A stretch of 6,712 nt of DNA, taken from a virus. A program made the position numbers and the translations under genes. Of the stretch, positions 1 through 6,712 are shown in pieces. The number at the start of each line of letters is the position of its first letter. Position 1 is the stretch's first letter. Where the stretch lies: positions 1 through 6,712 of the IMG/VR virus record IMGVR_UViG_3300018405_000745, one strand, 5' to 3'. The notes under the pieces were generated by a model. That model worked only from the letters and a program-made list of their open reading frames with translations, ran no database searches and was not told where the DNA came from.

Positions 1-5
1 AACAC

Positions 6-22
6 CAAGGGCTTTGCCCTTG
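6..22. repeat. Short perfect hairpin or inverted repeat, CAAGGGC-TTT-GCCCTTG
   Basis: A 7-bp stem (6-12 pairs with 16-22) with a 3-nt loop, in non-coding DNA. It is duplicated at 6595-6611 as part of the terminal repeat. Confidence 0.6.
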
Positions 23-43
23 TCATCCCACTCTTCGCCAGAG

Positions 44-86
44 GGTCAGAGGGCAGGGGAGAAAAGCTTTCCCCTGCCCTATGACC
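44..86. repeat. Long imperfect hairpin in the non-coding region
   Basis: GGTCAgAGGGCAGGGGA (44-60) pairs with TCCCCTGCCCTaTGACC (70-86). That gives 16 of 17 pairs with a single G/A mismatch (49/81) and a 9-nt loop, GAAAAGCTT. Confidence 0.7.
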
Positions 87-150
87 TAAGCTTGATCTGG
101 TCGGAGGAGGGTCAAGGGTCGGCGCAAGCGCCTCAAATCCTCACCCGTTC

Positions 151-180
151 GTTTTTTCGCGGTGAAGCGTGCGAAAAAGC
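151..180. repeat. Hairpin, GTTTTTTCGC-N10-GCGAAAAAGC
   Basis: 151-160 pairs with 171-180. There are 10 pairs including one G-T, and a 10-nt loop, GGTGAAGCGT. No T-tract follows on either strand, so it is not a classic terminator. Confidence 0.55.
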
Positions 181-191
181 CGCTGCGGCTT
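171..191 (-). terminator. Possible weak intrinsic terminator downstream of the 122-aa gene
   Basis: The minus strand reads AAGCCG-CAG-CGGCTT followed by TTTCGC, a 6-bp stem with a 3-nt loop and a short T run. It competes structurally with the 151-180 hairpin. Confidence 0.25.
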
Positions 192-309
192 GCGGTTTGC
201 CCCCTGACCGAGAAAGTAATCAGTCGGTACAAAGCGCGATAAGCATGAGAGCAAGAGACCATGCGAGCAATAGCGGCAGGCCCCAATCCGAATAAAGAAC
301 ATCCATTTG

Positions 310-678
310 TCAGCTTCCCTGGTACTCGTGGGAGTTCGGAGACGATGCTGCGATCTTGCTGGCCAAGGTCGATAACCAGACCTGCTGTTCTAGCTGATCA
401 GGTGTGACTGGGCCACCAGATAAACGCCTGACCGCAATTTCTCGAGCCTTGTCCTGGAGCATGCAAACAATTGCAGTGTTCTCAGCCTCCGTGAGCAGAA
501 CAGCGCCGGGAGCTAGTTTAGTAACGTTACCTTGTGCCGCTTTCTGCCTCTCACGGTATGCGCGCTGTTTCTCGGCTGGCGTCATGGCTTTACCAGTCGA
601 AGGACGACCACGGCGCTTGCGCTGGGAAGGCTCGTCCAGGGGAAGTGGCTGTGTGGCTTTATCTGTCGGGTCGATCAT
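310..678 (-). CDS. 122-aa hypothetical protein with a basic, AT-hook-like N-terminus (RKRRGRPSTGK...AEKQRAYRERQK). It is the second gene of the accessory pair.
   Basis: An ATG at 678-676 overlaps the TGA of the upstream gene (ATGA). An AGGAAG Shine-Dalgarno-like element lies 7 nt upstream. The ORF is the same sense as the rest of the phage. RGRP flanked by K/R matches the AT-hook core. Confidence 0.7.
   Translation of the reverse strand: MIDPTDKATQPLPLDEPSQRKRRGRPSTGKAMTPAEKQRAYRERQKAAQGNVTKLAPGAVLLTEAENTAIVCMLQDKAREIAVRRLSGGPVTPDQLEQQVWLSTLASKIAASSPNSHEYQGS
520..531. promoter_or_regulatory. Third exact copy of AGTAACGTTACC (contains the perfect palindrome GTAACGTTAC), inside the 122-aa gene
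   Basis: The 12-mer is identical to those at 945-956 and 1008-1019. Confidence 0.5.
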
Positions 679-914
679 GATGCCGCTTCCTGGGCTTTCC
701 AGATTGCAACGTCTACGTCATCGAACTCTTCAATTTGCAAAAGCCCAGCCGCATAAAGGGCTTGTGCGAAACCGCGCAACCGTTCCGGCTTTAGCTCGCC
801 CCGAATCGCGTCATCTAGGTAGGTATCGAGCACTTCATTTAGCAGGTTCGTTCTGTCCAGGCCTAGGAAGTGGTATAGATCGTTCAAAGCGGGGAGCAGG
901 TTAAGGCGTTTCAT
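675..914 (-). CDS. 79-aa acidic hypothetical protein (MKRLNLLPALNDLYHFLGLD...), the first gene of the accessory pair
   Basis: The ATG at 914-912 is preceded by AAGGAG (923-928) at 8-nt spacing. The gene lies downstream of a perfect TATAAT. Its stop overlaps the next start. I count about 14 D/E against 8 K/R. The track's 173-aa version begins at a TTG inside zot and is not favoured. Confidence 0.65.
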   Translation of the reverse strand: MKRLNLLPALNDLYHFLGLDRTNLLNEVLDTYLDDAIRGELKPERLRGFAQALYAAGLLQIEEFDDVDVAIWKAQEAAS

Positions 915-939
915 TGCAGTCTCCTTGGTTCGTGCCCTA

Positions 940-967
940 ATTATAGTAACGTTACCGTAAATGTGAT
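940..967 (-). promoter_or_regulatory. Candidate sigma70-type promoter of the 79/122-aa operon
   Basis: The minus strand has a perfect -10 TATAAT (plus-strand 940-945). The best -35 is ATCACA (962-967), 4 of 6 matches with a 16-nt spacer. The spacer consists largely of the GTAACGTTAC palindrome. Confidence 0.55.
945..963. promoter_or_regulatory. Promoter-proximal operator-like repeat AGTAACGTTACCgTAAATG
   Basis: A 19-nt direct repeat of 1008-1026 with one mismatch. It contains a 10-bp perfect palindrome and sits between the -35 and -10 elements. Confidence 0.6.
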
Positions 968-1007
968 AATTACATATTCCTATCAGAGCAGAGCGTGCAA
1001 TAGACAA

Positions 1008-1026
1008 AGTAACGTTACCATAAATG
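1008..1026. promoter_or_regulatory. Promoter-distal operator-like repeat AGTAACGTTACCaTAAATG
   Basis: It lies 63 bp (about six helical turns) from the proximal copy. It overlaps the zot stop codon (1015-1017). Confidence 0.6.
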
Positions 1027-2283
1027 GCCGGGCTTGCCTGATCCGACCACGACGATATCCGAAGTAGACGAACCCTCAAGCTGCGCACCTCTGGCCACGC
1101 GATCTGCGCCAAGGCTATCGACGGTGCGTCGATCGACACGACCACGGATATCAATAGGCCACGATCTGGCGACGTAAGCGACGGATTGTTTCTCAAGCAA
1201 GAGGCCGTATCCGGTCCTGGTCACAGTCCAGCCCAGGGCCTGAATCTCACTCACGCGGAAACGTTCCTTGATGTGATACGACGAATCGAGCAGCTCGATC
1301 TCGCCCATCAGCTCGCGACCGGGCTTATCACTATCGATGATGGCGGTGGCCCTGATCTGATACTGCTGAGCCATCTTGTCCAGGTAGTCGATTGGTGGAG
1401 GAAGCGCGTCTACCTTCTGATCGGTGGCGGATGCAGCAGGTGCACTCGCCTGCATGGATGGCGGCTCGGGATTGGTGAGCCCGGATGACGGCTCGACGCG
1501 CTGGACAGTGACAGCCGATGAAGGCTGCGTAGATGCAACGGCCCCGCCCGTTCCGGTGAAAAACCCATAGAGGTGATACACGGCGTAGATCGCGCCAACG
1601 AAAACGAATGGCACGCCTAGGGAGAGCAGCTTAGAGTTCTTCAGAACGTTGGTGCGCTCGGTCTGGTAGACGCTGCCCTTGACCGTCTCGCGACGGTGAC
1701 TGGAGTAGAGCCCGAAATAATTCGAGTCGTAGGAGCGGACGCCAGAGCCGATCTTGACGAACTTGCCCTTCGCCTGTTTTTGCCATTGCTCCCACTTGTA
1801 CTGATTGGGTCGGCCAACCGCCTGAAGTTTGAGGAAATAGATGATGTCCTCGATCCGGCTGCGGATGATCTTGTGCACGTCATCGCGGTCCTGACCCATG
1901 ATGACGATCTCTAGCCCGCGGTGCCGGTGTTCGGTCCAGAACTTTTGCTGGTTGAGCGGCAGCTTGTAGTTGCCGCTCGGAAAGTAGTCCTGAATCTCGT
2001 CCCATACGATCATCGCGTTATCAGGCGTCTTGTCGGCGAACTCGTTCTTCACGCGCTCGATGTCACCGGCTGCGCCATCCTGCTCAGCAGGCTCGACGTA
2101 GATGAGCAGCATGCGGACGTACTCGACAGGCTCGTCGAGGAGCTGGGCGAACTTCTCCCAGTTGATGCCGCGAATATTGGTAACGACCTGACGGCCTGCC
2201 TTCAAGGCGGGCAGGATGTGAAAAACGCAGGCTTCGTAGCTCTTGCCAGCTCCCGGCAGCCCCTCGTGGAAGTGGATAGCCAT
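1015..2283 (-). CDS. zot: pI/Zot-family morphogenesis NTPase, 422 aa
   Basis: The N-terminus MAIHFHEGLPGAGKSYEA carries a Walker A motif, GLPGAGKS (nt 2239-2262). The Walker B motif is MIVWDEIQ. A single TM segment, LLSLGVPFVFVGAIYAVYHLYGFF, falls mid-protein and is followed by a P/S/A-rich linker and a C-terminal domain. The ATG lies 3 nt after the pVI-like stop, with an AGGTGG Shine-Dalgarno element. Confidence 0.93.
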   Translation of the reverse strand: MAIHFHEGLPGAGKSYEACVFHILPALKAGRQVVTNIRGINWEKFAQLLDEPVEYVRMLLIYVEPAEQDGAAGDIERVKNEFADKTPDNAMIVWDEIQDYFPSGNYKLPLNQQKFWTEHRHRGLEIVIMGQDRDDVHKIIRSRIEDIIYFLKLQAVGRPNQYKWEQWQKQAKGKFVKIGSGVRSYDSNYFGLYSSHRRETVKGSVYQTERTNVLKNSKLLSLGVPFVFVGAIYAVYHLYGFFTGTGGAVASTQPSSAVTVQRVEPSSGLTNPEPPSMQASAPAASATDQKVDALPPPIDYLDKMAQQYQIRATAIIDSDKPGRELMGEIELLDSSYHIKERFRVSEIQALGWTVTRTGYGLLLEKQSVAYVARSWPIDIRGRVDRRTVDSLGADRVARGAQLEGSSTSDIVVVGSGKPGHLW

Positions 2284-2286
2284 AGG

Positions 2287-2580
2287 TCACCACCTACCGA
2301 GCGTGATGGCCTTGCGGCCAAGACGAAACATGTAGGCGGATGCAATCATGGCGAATGCCTGAGTAAGGCCAGCTTCGGACATAAAGAAACCGATGAACTC
2401 CATGACCGGCCCCATCTGGTCAGAGATGGGCGTGTCCATGAAGTCAGGCGGGGTGATCGTCTCGAGTACAGAGACGATGGCGTCTAGCAGGTCCTTGAGG
2501 ATCGCGACAGGCTTGTCGTCGAGATACTCGGTCCCGTCATCCCAGAGGCCTTTCCAGAAGGCGAGCGTGAAGAATTCCAT
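2287..2580 (-). CDS. pVI-like minor virion or membrane protein, 97 aa
   Basis: It sits between the adsorption gene and zot, as gene VI does in Ff-type phages. It has a hydrophobic core, FIGFFMSEAGLTQAFAMIASAYMF. A GAGGTGA Shine-Dalgarno element lies just upstream of the ATG at 2580. Confidence 0.6.
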   Translation of the reverse strand: MEFFTLAFWKGLWDDGTEYLDDKPVAILKDLLDAIVSVLETITPPDFMDTPISDQMGPVMEFIGFFMSEAGLTQAFAMIASAYMFRLGRKAITLGRW

Positions 2581-2588
2581 GGATCACC

Positions 2589-3929
2589 TCAGAGCAGAGC
2601 AATGCGGAATGCGAAGAAGCCAGCAGCGGCCAGAATGACGGCCTTGATGGCATTCCAGGGGATGTCGCCGTTGCAGAGCTGGTCAATGTCGATGTCGAAG
2701 ACCCAAACGGAGACCGACCAGCGCGGGCAGGTGCCCGTAGCACGGAACGTCAGAAAGCTACTCGTCTGCGACGCGACCGGGGTCTGCTGGACCTTGCCGA
2801 CGAATTCGGTCAGCACCGATCCGAATGTGTCACCAGTTGGGGTGTACCAGTCCTGACCCTCTCCACCACCACCCGCACCGCAATCATCACCAGTGCAATC
2901 GCCTACACCGTCACCGTCACTGTCGGGGTTGCCCTTGCCCGGGCAGGCCTCACCCTTGCAGGTGGATGATTCGCCGGTCTTGTTCCCATTGGCGTCCTCG
3001 GTGGTGGTCTTGGTGGTCTCGGCCTTCGTGGTCGTGCAATTGTTCACGCCGACACACTTGGTCACGGTGGCGGTGTCTTTCTTGGTGGTCTTAACCGAGC
3101 CGTCCGCAAGAGTCTCTTTCGTGACCTCGGTGCGAATGTCGATCCCGTTTTTCTCTGGCACTTTGGTGGTGCAAAACTCAGAACCGTCTTCGAGCGTGGC
3201 GCAGATTTGGCCCTCGACTTCGTCGGTCTTGCTCGAAGTGCAAACCTCCTTCGAACCATCGGCCGCATAGATGCACGGCTGCTCGTCCTTGAGGTTTTGA
3301 GGCTCAGGGGTCTCGATGGTGTCTTCAGGAACCAGATCAGAGCCAGTAGGCGCGCCAGTAGGGCATTCTGAGCCCGTATATTCACCTGAGCCACGACAGA
3401 AGTAGTCGCCACTCACGCGAGCCACGCAGCGGCGATCAGTGGTTTCGATAGCGCATCCGGAATAGCACGCATTACGCCCCGGTATGAACATGGGCTTGCC
3501 ATTGATATCAGCAAGTGTTCCGTAACCATCACCGGCAGTTCCTTGCTTTGACCAGTTCATCGACTGGCCTTGCTTGTCCTGACAAAGGTTTTGGGGAGCC
3601 TCACATGCGCCAGTCTGAGCATTGTATTCACCAGAAGAACAGCCGGACCCTGATCGAACCAATGTCGTGTAAACAGCTTTATTAGTAGATGGCGGTTGCA
3701 CCATCTGACAGGACGCTTGCGTAGTTGAAGTTATTGCATAACCAGACTCTTGATAGCCTTGGTTTTTATAGTAAGTGCCAACCGAACCGGCCCATTGAGC
3801 GGAGCACGCAAGCGCGACAGATGAATACTGCTGGGCCGAGGTAGATGTGCCCCAAGAGTAATCGGACGCTAACGAATGACCAGAGAAGATCAGGCCGCAG
3901 AGAACCCAGCAATAATCGCGCAGGCGCAT
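2589..3929 (-). CDS. pIII-like adsorption/minor coat protein, 446 aa from the ATG at 3929
   Basis: The signal peptide is MRLRDYCWVLCGLIFSGHSLA/SD. The protein has many Cys, T-rich and G-rich linkers (GAGGGGEG), and a C-terminal anchor AIKAVILAAAGFFAFRIALL. It lies directly after the coat gene and its terminator. The track start at 3941 is a TTG four codons upstream. Confidence 0.8.
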   Translation of the reverse strand: MRLRDYCWVLCGLIFSGHSLASDYSWGTSTSAQQYSSVALACSAQWAGSVGTYYKNQGYQESGYAITSTTQASCQMVQPPSTNKAVYTTLVRSGSGCSSGEYNAQTGACEAPQNLCQDKQGQSMNWSKQGTAGDGYGTLADINGKPMFIPGRNACYSGCAIETTDRRCVARVSGDYFCRGSGEYTGSECPTGAPTGSDLVPEDTIETPEPQNLKDEQPCIYAADGSKEVCTSSKTDEVEGQICATLEDGSEFCTTKVPEKNGIDIRTEVTKETLADGSVKTTKKDTATVTKCVGVNNCTTTKAETTKTTTEDANGNKTGESSTCKGEACPGKGNPDSDGDGVGDCTGDDCGAGGGGEGQDWYTPTGDTFGSVLTEFVGKVQQTPVASQTSSFLTFRATGTCPRWSVSVWVFDIDIDQLCNGDIPWNAIKAVILAAAGFFAFRIALL

Positions 3930-3979
3930 AGTGCCCCCCAAGTGAAAATCCCGAACTGAATCAGCATTTCGAACCCCTT

Positions 3980-4007
3980 AAACAAATGAGGCCCCCGAAG
4001 GAGCCTC
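3980..4007 (-). terminator. Rho-independent terminator after the major coat gene
   Basis: The minus-strand RNA reads GAGGCUCC-UUCG-GGGGCCUC, 8 bp with one G-U pair and a UUCG tetraloop, followed by AUUUGUUU. Ff phages have a terminator in the same position after gene VIII. Confidence 0.8.
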
Positions 4008-4024
4008 TAGCGGTGCAGCAACGA

Positions 4025-4159
4025 TCAGCGGAACCAGCCGATGACCTTGTTGAAACCCCATTTGGCGACACCCGGCAGAACCTTAATTGCAGCAATCGCG
4101 GCGATAGCGGCAACTACGGTGGAAGCGTCGACAGCGGAGGTGACGGCGGTGAAATCCAT
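4025..4159 (-). CDS. Major coat protein, 44 aa, no cleavable leader: MDFTAVTSAVDASTVVAAIAAIAAIKVLPGVAKWGFNKVIGWFR
   Basis: I translated this by hand and it is not in the ORF track. The N-terminus is acidic, the core is hydrophobic and alanine-rich, and the C-terminus is basic and aromatic. A GAGGAG Shine-Dalgarno element lies 7 nt upstream of the ATG. A strong terminator follows the gene. Confidence 0.85.
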   Translation of the reverse strand: MDFTAVTSAVDASTVVAAIAAIAAIKVLPGVAKWGFNKVIGWFR

Positions 4160-4163
4160 GGTG

Positions 4164-4436
4164 TTACTCCTCGATGGTTAGTGGTTCGGCGCGTGAGTTG
4201 ATGTAACCCACAACTACGCCGAATCCCCAGGCGGTGAGCCAGAGGATCAGGGGCAGAGACAAACCAGCCATAAAAGCGGTCTGGATCGTCTCCGAATCGG
4301 GCATTGCAAAAAGAGCCGCCAGCGTGGGAGTTGCGGCGTATTCCTCAGCAGTCATAAGCGCGTAACCGGCACAGGCAGGCGAGTACTCGCCAACCACACG
4401 GATCGAATCAGCTACGACCTCAACGCAGAGGCTCAT
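4164..4436 (-). CDS. 90-aa hypothetical membrane protein (possible minor virion or assembly protein)
   Basis: The ATG overlaps the stop of the 32-aa ORF (ATGA). The C-terminal TM segment is AFMAGLSLPLILWLTAWGFGVVVGYI. The gene lies in the structural module between the ssDNA-binding and coat genes. Confidence 0.6.
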   Translation of the reverse strand: MSLCVEVVADSIRVVGEYSPACAGYALMTAEEYAATPTLAALFAMPDSETIQTAFMAGLSLPLILWLTAWGFGVVVGYINSRAEPLTIEE

Positions 4437-4531
4437 GGCCGAAGCTCACGACGAACGAAGGCCAAGGCGGCAACACCACCAGCGAGGGTGGCGAAGAGCC
4501 AGAACGTGGCCGAGAGGCTGGCGGAGAGCAT
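4433..4531 (-). CDS. 32-aa hydrophobic peptide MLSASLSATFWLFATLAGGVAALAFVRRELRP, pVII/pIX-like
   Basis: I translated this by hand and it is not in the track. The ATG shares one base with the TGA of the upstream gene (TGATG). Its stop overlaps the next ATG. It has a single TM segment and a basic C-terminal tail, with the size and position typical of the small Ff tip proteins. Confidence 0.5.
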   Translation of the reverse strand: MLSASLSATFWLFATLAGGVAALAFVRRELRP

Positions 4532-4863
4532 CAGGCGGTCGCCGGCTGCTGTTGACGGGAAACGGCGAAGAGGTTCACGTTCTGAACCTTGGTTAGCCCG
4601 GTCAGCGTCAGGGTCGCTTTACCCTGTGCACCTGGACGAGAGCCGAAGTCCAAATCGAAGAGCGCGGGCAACTTGGCGTCGCGCAGGCGGTCAATCAGCG
4701 CACAATCGGCGCTAACCTTGGTGGGTTTGAATCCGAAACTACCGGCGGTGTCTTCGCGGTAGTCGTTGACGTACCAGACGGAAAGACCCTTGCGAATTTC
4801 GCCGGTTTTTTCGTCGGGCATTTCCCAGCTATCACACGAAAGGATAAGGGCGCGTTCTGCCAT
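4531..4863 (-). CDS. Putative ssDNA-binding protein (gene V analogue), 110 aa from the ATG at 4863
   Basis: It is the first gene of the structural operon, in the position of gene V, and its size is appropriate. A GAGG Shine-Dalgarno element lies 9 nt upstream of the ATG. The function is inferred from synteny only. The track start at 4878 is a TTG. Confidence 0.5.
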   Translation of the reverse strand: MAERALILSCDSWEMPDEKTGEIRKGLSVWYVNDYREDTAGSFGFKPTKVSADCALIDRLRDAKLPALFDLDFGSRPGAQGKATLTLTGLTKVQNVNLFAVSRQQQPATA

Positions 4864-4898
4864 GACAATAAACCTCAATTAGTGGTCGGAGCACCTGA

Positions 4899-4918
4899 AC
4901 GTCAAGTGCGCTTGACGT
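4899..4918. promoter_or_regulatory. Perfect palindrome ACGTCAAG-TGCG-CTTGACGT, operator-like, in the divergent intergenic region
   Basis: The arms are 8 bp with a 4-bp spacer. Each arm contains TTGACG, a -35-like hexamer, reading outward on its own strand. Confidence 0.5.
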
Positions 4919-4948
4919 AAAGTAGCCTTAACTATTGCGGGAGTCAAC

Positions 4949-5326
4949 ATGCACGAAAAGAGCCCACCAACTACCGTCGAGTGGTTGGATTTGGTGAAGG
5001 AGCGTTGCGGAGTCGGGAGTGACTACAAGCTGGCCGAGCTACTGGGCGTCACACGCCAAGCAATCAGCCAGCAGAGAGCGGGGAAGCAGTGCATGTCGAT
5101 CATGTCAGCAGTGCGAGTTGCCGAGGCGCTGAAGCTGCCTTCGCAGGCCGTGATTGCTGGCGTGATGTACTACGGAGACCGGGAGACGAATCGCGGATTT
5201 TGGGCGGATCGATGGGCCCGTGCATGGCCAGCAGTTCAAAAACGAATCGTGCAACCGCCTCATGGCCACCAGTCTCAGCCAATCGGAGCAGAACAGCGCG
5301 CGCCTGATATGGCTGGCGAAGGATGA
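4949..5326 (+). CDS. HTH DNA-binding regulator (XRE/CI-like repressor candidate), 125 aa
   Basis: The helix-turn-helix reads DYKLAELLGVTRQAISQQRAG. A GGGAG Shine-Dalgarno element lies 5 nt before the ATG. It is the only credible plus-strand gene and is divergent from the structural operon, like repressors of temperate inoviruses. Confidence 0.75.
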   Translation: MHEKSPPTTVEWLDLVKERCGVGSDYKLAELLGVTRQAISQQRAGKQCMSIMSAVRVAEALKLPSQAVIAGVMYYGDRETNRGFWADRWARAWPAVQKRIVQPPHGHQSQPIGAEQRAPDMAGEG

Positions 5327-6470
5327 TCCGCCACTGATCGCGGGTGACCTGCGAGACGCGCAAAGCGGTAGCAATCTCTTCCTGGTTGATTTCCTCATCG
5401 GTCTGGTCGGCGATCTGAAAAAGCGCCTTGAGGCCGGGAGTCCAGCGAAGCTGGTTGTAGCCCTTGAATGCAGCAGAAAACTCAGCAAACAGCGCGCCGG
5501 AACGGGCATCGCCTTCGGCGTAGGAGCGGAGCAGATCAAAGGGCGTGCGACCCTTGCCAGTCCCGCGCTTGGAATTCGCCTTGGTCACTTCGCTGGCCGC
5601 TTCCCATCGGGGTTCGGTGCCCCACTTGGCGACATACTCCGCAGCCGACTCGGCCTGCTGAATGTGCACGCCACGCTCCCTGGACGGAGCCGGGAGACCA
5701 GCAGCGACGGACGAAGTTTTCCAGACGGCAAACAGCAGGCGATGGAGCATGGCGCGCTGGCGAACCGTCAGCGGCTCGGGGAACAGCCAGAGTTCGTGGA
5801 AGTGCGGGTGCCAGCCGTTGGCGTTACCGTGCGTTACCTCTAAGGCCCGAATCGAACCCACCACGTCGAACAACTCGCGGAGGTGCTTGTAATCGCGATG
5901 CTCGCGCATTTTCTTCGTCGCTACGCGGAGCTTGCCCATCAGCTCGGAAAGCACATCCATGCGCGCATGGCGCACAGTGAGCGTGACCATTTCGACCCCG
6001 CCACCGGCTGAAATGTGCGTGTCGATTGCCTGACGCACTTCCAGTTTGCGACGTTCCGAGATTTTGGCGGAGCAGATCGGGCAGGACCAGACAGAAGAGC
6101 AGGTCTGAAGGCCCGAGTAGTGAGCCTTGCCAGTGGCGGAATCCTTCAGGATGCCGACAAACCCGTCCTTGTTGGTGAGCGTTCGAATGCAATGCCTGAC
6201 GCGATGGTCTGGCAGGAGCCGCCGAGCGGCGTCCTGAAGCGAAAAACGCGCTTCGCGGGCCTGTTCTGGCGTGAACTCGGGTACAAACTCACGACGCTTG
6301 TTGTCGAACGTAAACCGTTGAATTTCCCCGGTTTTCTCGTCGACAACCTCCTTAATTCTGGCCGCGAATTTCGCAGTAGTAACAAGGGCGCCTCCGGCGG
6401 CCCGCGCTTCGCTTGCGGGACCGCCCGGATGCGCCTTTCGCACCTGGGCGCTTTCTGTTATAGAATCCAC
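5100..6470 (-). CDS. HUH-superfamily rolling-circle replication initiator, 456 aa with a GTG start
   Basis: The motifs run in the order CSSVWSCPIC (Cys cluster), VTLTV, HPHFH (HUH, nt 5796-5810), then AAEYVAKW (candidate catalytic Tyr, nt 5634-5636). This order resembles pC194/pUB110-type (Rep_1-like) initiators. The start is uncertain. The GTG at 6470 has GAGG 7 nt upstream, and no ATG occurs before residue 161. Confidence 0.85.
   Translation of the reverse strand: MDSITESAQVRKAHPGGPASEARAAGGALVTTAKFAARIKEVVDEKTGEIQRFTFDNKRREFVPEFTPEQAREARFSLQDAARRLLPDHRVRHCIRTLTNKDGFVGILKDSATGKAHYSGLQTCSSVWSCPICSAKISERRKLEVRQAIDTHISAGGGVEMVTLTVRHARMDVLSELMGKLRVATKKMREHRDYKHLRELFDVVGSIRALEVTHGNANGWHPHFHELWLFPEPLTVRQRAMLHRLLFAVWKTSSVAAGLPAPSRERGVHIQQAESAAEYVAKWGTEPRWEAASEVTKANSKRGTGKGRTPFDLLRSYAEGDARSGALFAEFSAAFKGYNQLRWTPGLKALFQIADQTDEEINQEEIATALRVSQVTRDQWRIILRQPYQARAVLLRLAETGGHEAVARFVFELLAMHGPIDPPKIRDSSPGLRSTSRQQSRPAKAASAPRQLALLT
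5821..5838. repeat. Tandem GCGTTACC-GT-GCGTTACC, period 10
   Basis: There are two copies of the CGTTACC half-site found in the AGTAACGTTACC motifs. They lie inside rep, encoding HGNAN just upstream of HPHFH. Confidence 0.5.
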
Positions 6471-6492
6471 TTCAGGACCTCGACCGTCCGAG

Positions 6493-6543
6493 CCCCGCGA
6501 ATCGTTTAGCCGGCAAGCAAACGAGCAATTCGCGGGGTTTTTT
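6493..6543 (+). terminator. Long hairpin plus T6. It is an intrinsic terminator for plus-strand transcription, or an ssDNA or leader structure just upstream of rep.
   Basis: CCCCGCGAAT (6493-6502) pairs perfectly with ATTCGCGGGG (6528-6537). An inner stem pairs CGTTT with AAACG. TTTTTT follows at 6538-6543. No T-tract follows the hairpin on the minus strand. Confidence 0.55.
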
Positions 6544-6589
6544 ATTGCCTTGCCGTCAAGCGATCTTAACGGCTCCGTGTCGCCTATCC

Positions 6590-6712
6590 AACACCAAGGG
6601 CTTTGCCCTTGTCATCCCACTCTTCGCCAGAGGGTCAGAGGGCAGGGGAGAAAAGCTTTCCCCTGCCCTATGACCTAAGCTTGATCTGGTCGGAGGAGGG
6701 TCAAGGGTCGGC
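6590..6712. repeat. Right copy of the terminal direct repeat
   Basis: Identical to 1-123, with a repeat offset of 6,589 bp. Confidence 0.95.

Follow-up and report, generated by a model that had tools for sequence, protein, structure and literature searches.

A probable autoregulatory operator set and its predicted binding protein in an inovirus genome

The IMG/VR virus record IMGVR_UViG_3300018405_000745, analysed here over positions 1 to 6,712 (this whole stretch is referred to as the window), is an inovirus with the majority of its genes on the minus strand, and it carries three exact copies of the 12-mer AGTAACGTTACC, each with a palindromic core. We consider it probable (roughly 0.7) that these palindromes are operators for the product of a 122-amino-acid (aa) gene, which would thereby regulate its own operon. 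That they form an operator set was first suggested by a sequence-only reading, and this suggestion is supported by the conservation of the sites, by their linkage to the family of the 122-aa protein and by their fixed position relative to the -10 hexamer of a promoter. Among the proteins that might bind them, comparative evidence strongly favours the 122-aa protein.

The palindromes and the promoter

An exact match search places the three copies at 520-531, 945-956 and 1008-1019, as in the sequence-only reading. With up to two mismatches on both strands, AGTAACGTTACC has seven matches where 0.17 are expected, a count reached in none of 200 shuffles; dyad-symmetric sites are present beyond chance, as an autoregulatory operator set would have them. 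The promoter-proximal putative operator (945..956, core 946-955, minus strand) fills the spacer of the promoter of the operon and abuts its -10, since TATAAT occupies 945..940 on the minus strand (940..945) and the candidate -35 elements lie at 962-969. The latter region can be read as TTATCA (969..964, with an 18-nt spacer) or ATCACA (967..962, with a 16-nt spacer), both of which match at four of six positions, and the promoter scores 10/12 with either; the placement of one palindrome in the spacer of a promoter with a consensus -10 was thus correctly recognized. The -10 is kept in the promoters of relatives, in which the -35 region is a conserved AATTAG. A ribosome-binding site, AAGGAG (921..926, minus strand), was read from the sequence 6 nt ahead of the ATG (914..912) of the first gene of the operon, which encodes a 79-aa protein.

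The promoter-distal putative operator (1008..1019, core 1009-1018, minus strand) lies 63 bp upstream of the proximal one and overlaps the zot stop codon (1015-1017), and the third copy (520..531, core 521-530, minus strand), a putative intragenic auxiliary operator, is found 425 nt from the promoter site within the 122-aa open reading frame (ORF; 310-678, minus strand), the second gene of the operon; both locations agree with the sequence-only reading. The two promoter copies were also said to extend to 19-nt direct repeats 63 bp apart with one mismatch. They do (945-963 and 1008-1026, with one base different), and these units are part of a longer, 33-nt imperfect direct repeat (931-963/994-1026, 79% identical, with the same 63-nt spacing), so that the whole control region (931..1026, minus strand) consists of two repeat units, each an AT-flanked palindrome. 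The stretch between these two sites had been described as the most AT-rich of the genome, which is largely but not wholly accurate: whichever sliding window between 40 and 100 nt is used, GC content across the genome is lowest within 924-1025 (GC 0.23-0.37 versus 0.575 overall), but the sharpest minimum, at 938-988, also takes in the promoter-proximal site and the -10/-35 elements.

Linkage of the palindromes to the 122-aa protein family

A motif scan of IMG/VR with the 19-mer AGTAACGTTACCNTAAATG returned 18 viral contigs. Four of these hold single chance matches, and the other 14 are inovirus-sized and have the same layout, with two palindromes 63 bp apart and a further copy downstream. All 14 encode the N-terminal domain (N-domain) of the 122-aa protein, with 72-94% identity over the N-terminal 50 residues. 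The sequence-only reading had left three candidates for the binding protein, and they fare very differently by this measure: the AT-hook-like 122-aa protein is represented in 14/14 contigs, whereas the 79-aa protein occurs in 1/14 and the helix-turn-helix (HTH) protein encoded elsewhere in the window (4949-5326, plus strand) in 0/14. Because the N-domain is always there while the zot and rep genes of the same 14 contigs are mostly unrelated, the pair of promoter and family gene acts like a mobile cassette.

The motif is kept in related phages, which had been proposed as a check, and it always abuts the -10, usually with a second copy 63 bp upstream. In 38 distinct relatives GGTAACGTTAC is directly followed by TATAAT (in a few by TAAAAT), so that a site over the core promoter of the regulator's own operon is found in all of these as well as in the window. 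In 30 distinct promoter sequences the second palindrome lies exactly 63 bp upstream, and these align gap-free with the consensus AaTTA.gGTAACGTTACttTATCTAT ... GATAGcAACATgCAATTAg...ATTTa.GGTAACGTTACTATAATTA. Each of the roughly 45 distinct inovirus loci with this palindrome abutting a -10 is joined to a gene with the 122-aa N-domain, which in most relatives starts ~35 nt past the -10 with no intervening gene. The operator consensus is ATTTA-N-G-GTAACGTTAC-TWTAW, and the A/T fraction is ~1.0 at positions -7..-3 and +1..+5 of the proximal and distal copies and of the copies that relatives carry at phage attachment sites (attP, discussed below); in the window, the intragenic copy lacks an AT-rich left flank. 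Almost all complete modules have at least one further copy downstream, at a distance of 187, 196, 425 or about 770-940 bp and in no consistent helical phase. Across the window and the fetched loci (about 60 genomes, including just a few 20-kb stretches of host flank), a single exact copy lies outside the cassette, namely an attP copy that recurs where a circular contig (locus L018) ends. A scan of genome contigs yielded at least 18 loci from a poorly sampled host range.

Two phages from the same black-swan study are particularly instructive. At the DNA level blackswan219-6 is the only sequenced close phage, with similarity confined to rep and a 115-aa ORF (4531-4878, minus strand); its Rep is 88% identical to that of the window, its HTH protein 68% and the product of the 115-aa ORF 90%, and it has neither a family member nor a palindrome, even at one mismatch. 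The other, blackswan219-1, encodes the N-domain (72% identity) and has two exact palindromes at the 63-bp spacing, but neither the HTH nor the Rep of the window. Judged by sequence, this is a double dissociation of the sites and the family gene from HTH and Rep.

Family members are also found on small Aeromonas, Klebsiella and Pseudomonas plasmids. On the Aeromonas media plasmid pAeme1 (locus L101, 403-744 and upstream) and in locus L102 they are preceded by the same promoter frame, CATTTATCGTCACATGTGACGTATATT, and a second GTCACATGTAAC follows it closely. Since small plasmids carry family members behind the same frame, the cassette is not restricted to phages.

Co-variation of helix and half-site

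The strongest argument from sequence that the N-domain would read the sites is that its helix and the half-sites change together. For about 80 distinct loci, the helix was extracted along with the dyad that abuts the nearest upstream -10 (half-sites are separated here by hyphens). The helix TPAEKQ[RK]AYR goes with the dyad GTAAC-GTTAC in about 44 distinct loci, [ST]NAERQRxYR with GTTAC-GTAAC or GTTAC-GTTAC in 12 loci, and [ST]DAERARRYRA with GTGAC-gc-GTCAC in 12 loci from P. aeruginosa phages such as 42-1; SGAERQ or TGAERQ goes with GTCAC-(0-2)-GTGAC in one IMG/VR locus (L092) and in pAeme1, and ARSSAERMRELRE with GTCAC-g-GTGAC in a Thauera element. The half-sites are therefore arranged differently between family members (head-to-head, tail-to-tail or direct), and the promoter frame, ATTTAT-C/G-G-[dyad]-TATAAT, is constant across all helix classes. 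Sites and the proposed regulator are inherited together and their specificity co-varies, as seen in the 14/14 contigs, in four helix/half-site classes and in the black-swan phages. The proposed code would have TPAEKQ read GTAAC-GTTAC, SNAERQ read GTTAC-GTAAC and SDAERA read GTGAC-GC-GTCAC.

The 122-aa protein and its family

An AlphaFold model of the 122-aa protein, the proposed operator-binding autoregulator (gene at 310..678, minus strand), has a disordered stretch at residues 1-33 that includes KRRGRP, a basic helix at 34-50 and a confident helical hairpin at 64-112 that makes up the C-terminal domain (C-domain); the predicted local distance difference test score (pLDDT) is 47-57 for residues 1-30 and 82 for residues 31-40. 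The N-domain (about 46 aa) is an AT-hook, KRRGRP, followed by a single basic helix, TPAEKQRAYRERQK, and has the family consensus MIDPxDKxTQxLPLDExPxKRKRGRPxTGKAMTPAEKQRAYRERQK. In 51 sequences G24, R25, P26, A35, E36, Q38, Y41, R42 and R44 are invariant and R23 is nearly so. The isoelectric point (pI) of residues 18-50 is 11.9. Residues 20-26 (RKRRGRP) provide the basic-flanked R-G-R-P core of an AT-hook, and the A/T tracts that such a hook would be expected to contact adjoin the specific core of the promoter and attP copies. The tails that follow the N-domain are hypervariable and often coiled-coil-like, and the probable role of the C-terminal helical domain is to join two or more chains.

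The family appears to be large and unnamed. When 1.84 billion representatives were searched with a profile, 1,405 clusters (50% identity) passed E<=1e-3 and 269 passed E<=1e-10, although at least two among the 150 matches listed are long repetitive proteins that are probably not true members. Profile searches of Pfam and NCBIfam with the 122-aa protein matched no named family, and in PHROGs residues 1-54 matched families of unknown function only. A PDB sequence search with the N-domain profile retrieved just a chance Get2 peptide, and Foldseek against the PDB returned nothing at E<=0.001 for the models of either the 122-aa or the 79-aa protein. Literature searches (for the palindrome, the helix peptides, AT-hooks in filamentous phages and phage 42-1) found no description of the family or the motif, and the paper on the Pf lineage does not cover these phages. 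The homologue in phage 42-1 was labelled 'replication regulatory protein RepB' by its depositors, an annotation that was not reproduced with Pfam at E<=10. Membership of three known classes of DNA-binding protein was also considered. Assignment to the HTH families found no support from the profiles or the model. There is no match to Pfam bZIP (basic leucine zipper) even at E<=10, and in the model the helix gives way to a loop after residue 50; there is likewise no match to a ribbon-helix-helix (RHH) profile of the CopG/Arc/omega kind, and the N-domain model has one helix only and no strand.

DNA-level constraint on the intragenic copy

The intragenic palindrome encodes G-N-V-T directly after the N-domain of the 122-aa protein, which raises the question of whether it is kept for its protein product. 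NVT is present in 50 of 120 homologues (54 occurrences versus 1.2 expected), in some of them at other positions as well. The residue ahead of it is G, S or R in 53 of the 54 occurrences, amino acids that have little in common but the codon form xGT. All 21 exact intragenic copies in the loci of relatives use one reading frame, and in 16 genes three synonymous positions of xGT AAC GTT AC are invariant; in the same genes the Thr codon varies (T, G or C) at its third base, which no longer belongs to the palindrome, and the flanking conserved codons vary freely. Coding copies moreover keep the A-rich 3' flank as far as the frame permits. This pattern of codon use argues that the intragenic copy is a feature of the DNA rather than of the protein.

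Proposed mechanism

In the proposed mechanism, the 122-aa protein would bind the three dyads as a dimer or higher oligomer, and two chains would sit on the dyad GTAAC-GTTAC with one helix per half-site, their AT-hooks lying in the AT-rich flanks of the operator. Since the site at 945-956 fills the spacer between -35 and -10, its occupancy should exclude RNA polymerase and result in autorepression. The site at 1008-1019, 63 bp (6.0 helical turns) upstream, may add cooperative binding, and that at 520-531, 425 bp downstream, might serve as an auxiliary operator, either through looping or by forming a roadblock. The presence, non-randomness and conservation of the sites, their linkage to the family gene, their co-variation with its helix and the DNA-level constraint are shown by the sequences; binding, autorepression, cooperativity and looping are inferred, looping being plausible.

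Several points weigh against the idea that the N-domain reads these sites as an autorepressor. It has no recognized DNA-binding fold in Pfam, NCBIfam or the PDB and consists of a disordered stretch and one helix, and the C-domain of the window's own protein, which starts GAVLLTEAENTAIV, could be ribbon-helix-helix-like and bind DNA in its own right, although this domain is absent from most genomes that have the same operator. The co-variation classes are clades that represent few independent events, and host lineage may change alongside them. The second and third sites are not spaced alike in all family members: the promoter copies of some are 25-38 bp rather than 63 bp apart, and the downstream copy lies anywhere from 187 to ~940 bp away, which weakens the case for looping. 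Finally, regulators that bind within a promoter spacer may also be activators, as MerR is.

Alternative explanations

This last possibility deserves to be considered together with a related one, namely that the 122-aa protein does bind the palindromes but as an activator or bidirectional switch, in the manner of MerR, or mainly to block read-through from zot. In favour of this, the -35 of relatives is weak and their spacer is probably 18 nt (TTAGNN-N18-TATAAT), the distal site covers the zot stop codon, and no terminator-like site was found in 250-1300, a region that spans the gap between zot and the operon. However, the promoter should work unaided because its -10 is perfect and the alternative with a 16-nt spacer scores 10/12, and small regulators of mobile elements whose binding site lies over their own core promoter are mostly repressors, so that we regard this as unlikely. 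Less probable still is that the palindromes are bound by a host transcription factor, for example a dimeric regulator from Pseudomonas or Stutzerimonas of the LacI or another type, which would tie the operon to host physiology, and that their linkage to the 122-aa family comes about indirectly, through shared hosts. The core, a short dyad with CG at its centre, does resemble many host operators, and the operator classes partly track host groups, GTGAC being found in P. aeruginosa phages and GTCAC-at-GTGAC in the Aeromonas plasmid. Nevertheless, the confinement of exact copies to the cassette in the window and the fetched loci (L018 apart, and with few 20-kb host flanks covered) speaks against a host factor, and the sites are absent from blackswan219-6, which has Rep and HTH but no family gene. 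Furthermore, the half-sites shift together with the helix inside a fixed promoter frame in Pseudomonas, Thauera and Aeromonas, which would need a host factor that drifts in step everywhere.

The palindromes might alternatively be recombination sites, either part of a Xer (dif-like) site or break points at which C-terminal halves and small upstream genes are swapped. This notion draws on relatives in which the far-downstream copy is exact and sits within a dif-like sequence, TTCGCATAATGGGTAACGTTACGTTTAAT; in two chromosomal prophages (L103 and L105) the element lies between a true dif (GCTTCGCATAATGTATATTATGTTAAAT) and a site of the TTCGCATAATGGGTAACGTTACGTTTAAT type. Most relatives (L023-L044, L048, L062, L065, L076, L087, L089, L099 and L100) have two inverted dif-like arms 76-115 bp apart (at 3726 and 3802 in L024, for example), one of which contains an exact GTAACGTTAC, and this arrangement we take to be a CTXphi-like single-strand attachment site. 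The intragenic copy, for its part, is exactly where family homology ends, and the slot between promoter and family gene holds unrelated small ORFs. Yet the attP copy owes 7/10 of its bases to the XerD-arm stem common to both inverted arms, and it does not change with the operator class, since GT[AG]ACGTTAC persists in class B phages and no such copy exists in the P. aeruginosa class. Where NVT, and with it any in-frame copy, is lacking (70 of 120 homologues), the boundary between N- and C-terminal parts does not shift, and recombination leaves the fixed position relative to the -10 unexplained. The window itself has no match to the XerC arm (TTCGCATAA), the XerD arm or the dif 28-mer at relaxed stringency; a Xer site is thereby ruled out for its own copies and, as it has no dif-like sequence, what is said of the attP copy does not apply to it. 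A role in recombination is, on this evidence, very unlikely. Even less credit can be given to the HTH protein, a repressor-like product that would bind the palindromes and place the operon distal to zot under lysogeny-type control. It is the sole protein of the window with a recognizable DNA-binding fold, but co-occurrence speaks against it, for it is missing from the 14 contigs with the same operators, its 68% homologue is encoded by blackswan219-6, a genome without the palindrome, and it seems to have a dyad of its own (see below). An RNA element was ruled out as well, there being no Rfam match and the 10-nt palindrome being too short for a stable hairpin. Autoregulation by the 122-aa protein is the preferred explanation.

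The HTH protein and the 79-aa gene

The HTH protein has weak matches to HTH_3, P22 Cro and CI, and to phrog_4441 and phrog_638. A different dyad, CGTCAAG-N4-CTTGACG, occurs in perfect form before its gene (4900-4917) and with one mismatch upstream of rep (6554-6571); with up to three mismatches there are five matches in the window versus 0.38 expected, and both places are kept in blackswan219-6 (L121, at 1270 and 6346). These dyads are likely to be the HTH repressor's own operators.

The 79-aa gene (675..914, minus strand) is the first of the operon, and its stop codon overlaps the start of the 122-aa gene as ATGA. Its product is an acidic protein (pI 4.5) modelled as a four-helix bundle (pLDDT 92.6), with no named family in Pfam, NCBIfam or PHROGs and 10 homologues in all, one of them from Stutzerimonas stutzeri. 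The gene is a narrow-range insert in a variable slot. In relatives (L028, L035, L046, L059-L061, L064, L066, L072, L074, L085, L091, L098 and L104) the slot between promoter and family gene is occupied by unrelated ORFs of 55-117 aa, nearly all of which overlap the start of the family gene as ATGA.

Genome context

Positions 1-123 of the window are identical to 6590-6712, and with these 123-nt ends the window represents a circular genome of 6,589 nt. On the minus strand it encodes a Rep_1-type replication protein (5100-6470), zot (1015-2283), small coat-like ORFs and a pIII-like ORF; the 115-aa ORF occupies the position where inoviruses encode their single-stranded-DNA-binding protein and has no family match. 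The HTH and rep ORFs are convergent and overlap by 227 nt, and one of the two ORF ends is probably over-called. In the large intergenic region there is a hairpin with a 17-bp stem (GGTCAGAGGGCAGGGGA...TCCCCTGCCCTATGACC) at 44-86 and again at 6633-6675, and the stretch around it is 94% identical to Pseudomonas aeruginosa phage 42-1 (849-935); the hairpin may be an origin or a packaging element. No Rfam model reached its gathering score anywhere in the window. A 27-nt direct repeat, 81% identical, links 480-506 in the 122-aa gene and 5273-5299 in the rep/HTH overlap. It is probably due to chance because the encoded proteins are dissimilar (BLASTP E=27), and the kinship between the C-domain of the 122-aa protein and the C-terminus of Rep to which it might have pointed is ruled out on the same grounds.

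Comparison with known systems

In its layout the set comes closest to the lac triad, in its logic to the small autorepressors of plasmids, and in its predicted mode of recognition to basic-region proteins with a minor-groove arm. The lac operon has, besides O1, an auxiliary O3 92 bp upstream and an O2 401 bp downstream inside lacZ. The window similarly has a dyad at the core promoter and auxiliary sites besides it, one a short distance upstream (63 bp) and one in coding sequence downstream (425 bp). However, the protein is unrelated, the core is 10 bp rather than the 21 bp of lac, regulation would be autogenous and the downstream site lies at different distances in different relatives. Two small plasmid autorepressors of the RHH type, CopG of pMV158 and omega of pSM19035, bind short repeated half-sites. 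They share with the 122-aa protein the setting on a mobile element, an operator over the regulator's own promoter and half-sites of ~5 bp in varying order, but the conserved module is here predicted to be an AT-hook and a single helix, with no RHH match.

As regards recognition, bZIP proteins of the PAR type bind RTTAYGTAAY, others the CRE TGACGTCA, and Skn-1 combines a basic helix with an arm that reaches into the minor groove of AT-rich DNA. The operator of class B, GTTACGTAAC, equals the PAR-type consensus. The family resembles these proteins in having a basic helix ahead of a separate domain capable of joining chains, abutting half-sites of 4-5 bp with a central CG, and AT flanks near the RGRP motif. 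There is, however, no sequence or profile match, the N-x7-R signature is absent and the helix breaks after residue 50, many members having linkers that contain G or P, so that the likeness is best seen as an analogy of mechanism and not as membership. With AT-hook proteins (HMGA and the bacterial CarD and WhiB7) the family shares an invariant K/R-flanked R-G-R-P and operators flanked by A/T tracts. Classical hooks alone have little sequence specificity, whereas the hook of this family comes with a helix that seems to determine the half-site. The RstR/ig-2 modules of CTXphi-like inoviruses, in which a repressor has operators at its own gene and at rep, fit the window's HTH protein and the CGTCAAG-N4-CTTGACG dyads. 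That circuit would be a second and separate one in the window, as the GTAACGTTAC set does not travel with HTH.

Implications

An autoregulated promoter with auxiliary operators is textbook logic, and the circuit as such is thus ordinary and unsurprising. It is the DNA-binding module that looks undescribed. What is new is a likely regulator in a large family without a record in Pfam, NCBIfam, the PDB or the literature, a predicted DNA-reading part that comprises just an AT-hook and one helix, and natural variants in which different helices go with different half-sites while the rest of the promoter frame stays the same. Because nature provides such pairs, a recognition code could be tested directly with a few proteins and oligonucleotides.

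A bolder proposal, which we consider less likely than not, is that the 46-aa N-domain constitutes an undescribed prokaryotic DNA-binding module, an AT-hook with a single basic recognition helix reminiscent of Skn-1 and bZIP, that has a readable helix-to-half-site code and is joined to interchangeable C-domains on inoviruses and small plasmids. In relatives that integrate at dif it would also bind the attP copy, tying its own level to integration or excision. The cassette could in addition yield compact orthogonal repressor/operator pairs. For inovirus biology, the findings point to a mobile regulatory cassette with a slot for small genes, which in relatives adjoins what is presumably a CTXphi-like attachment site.

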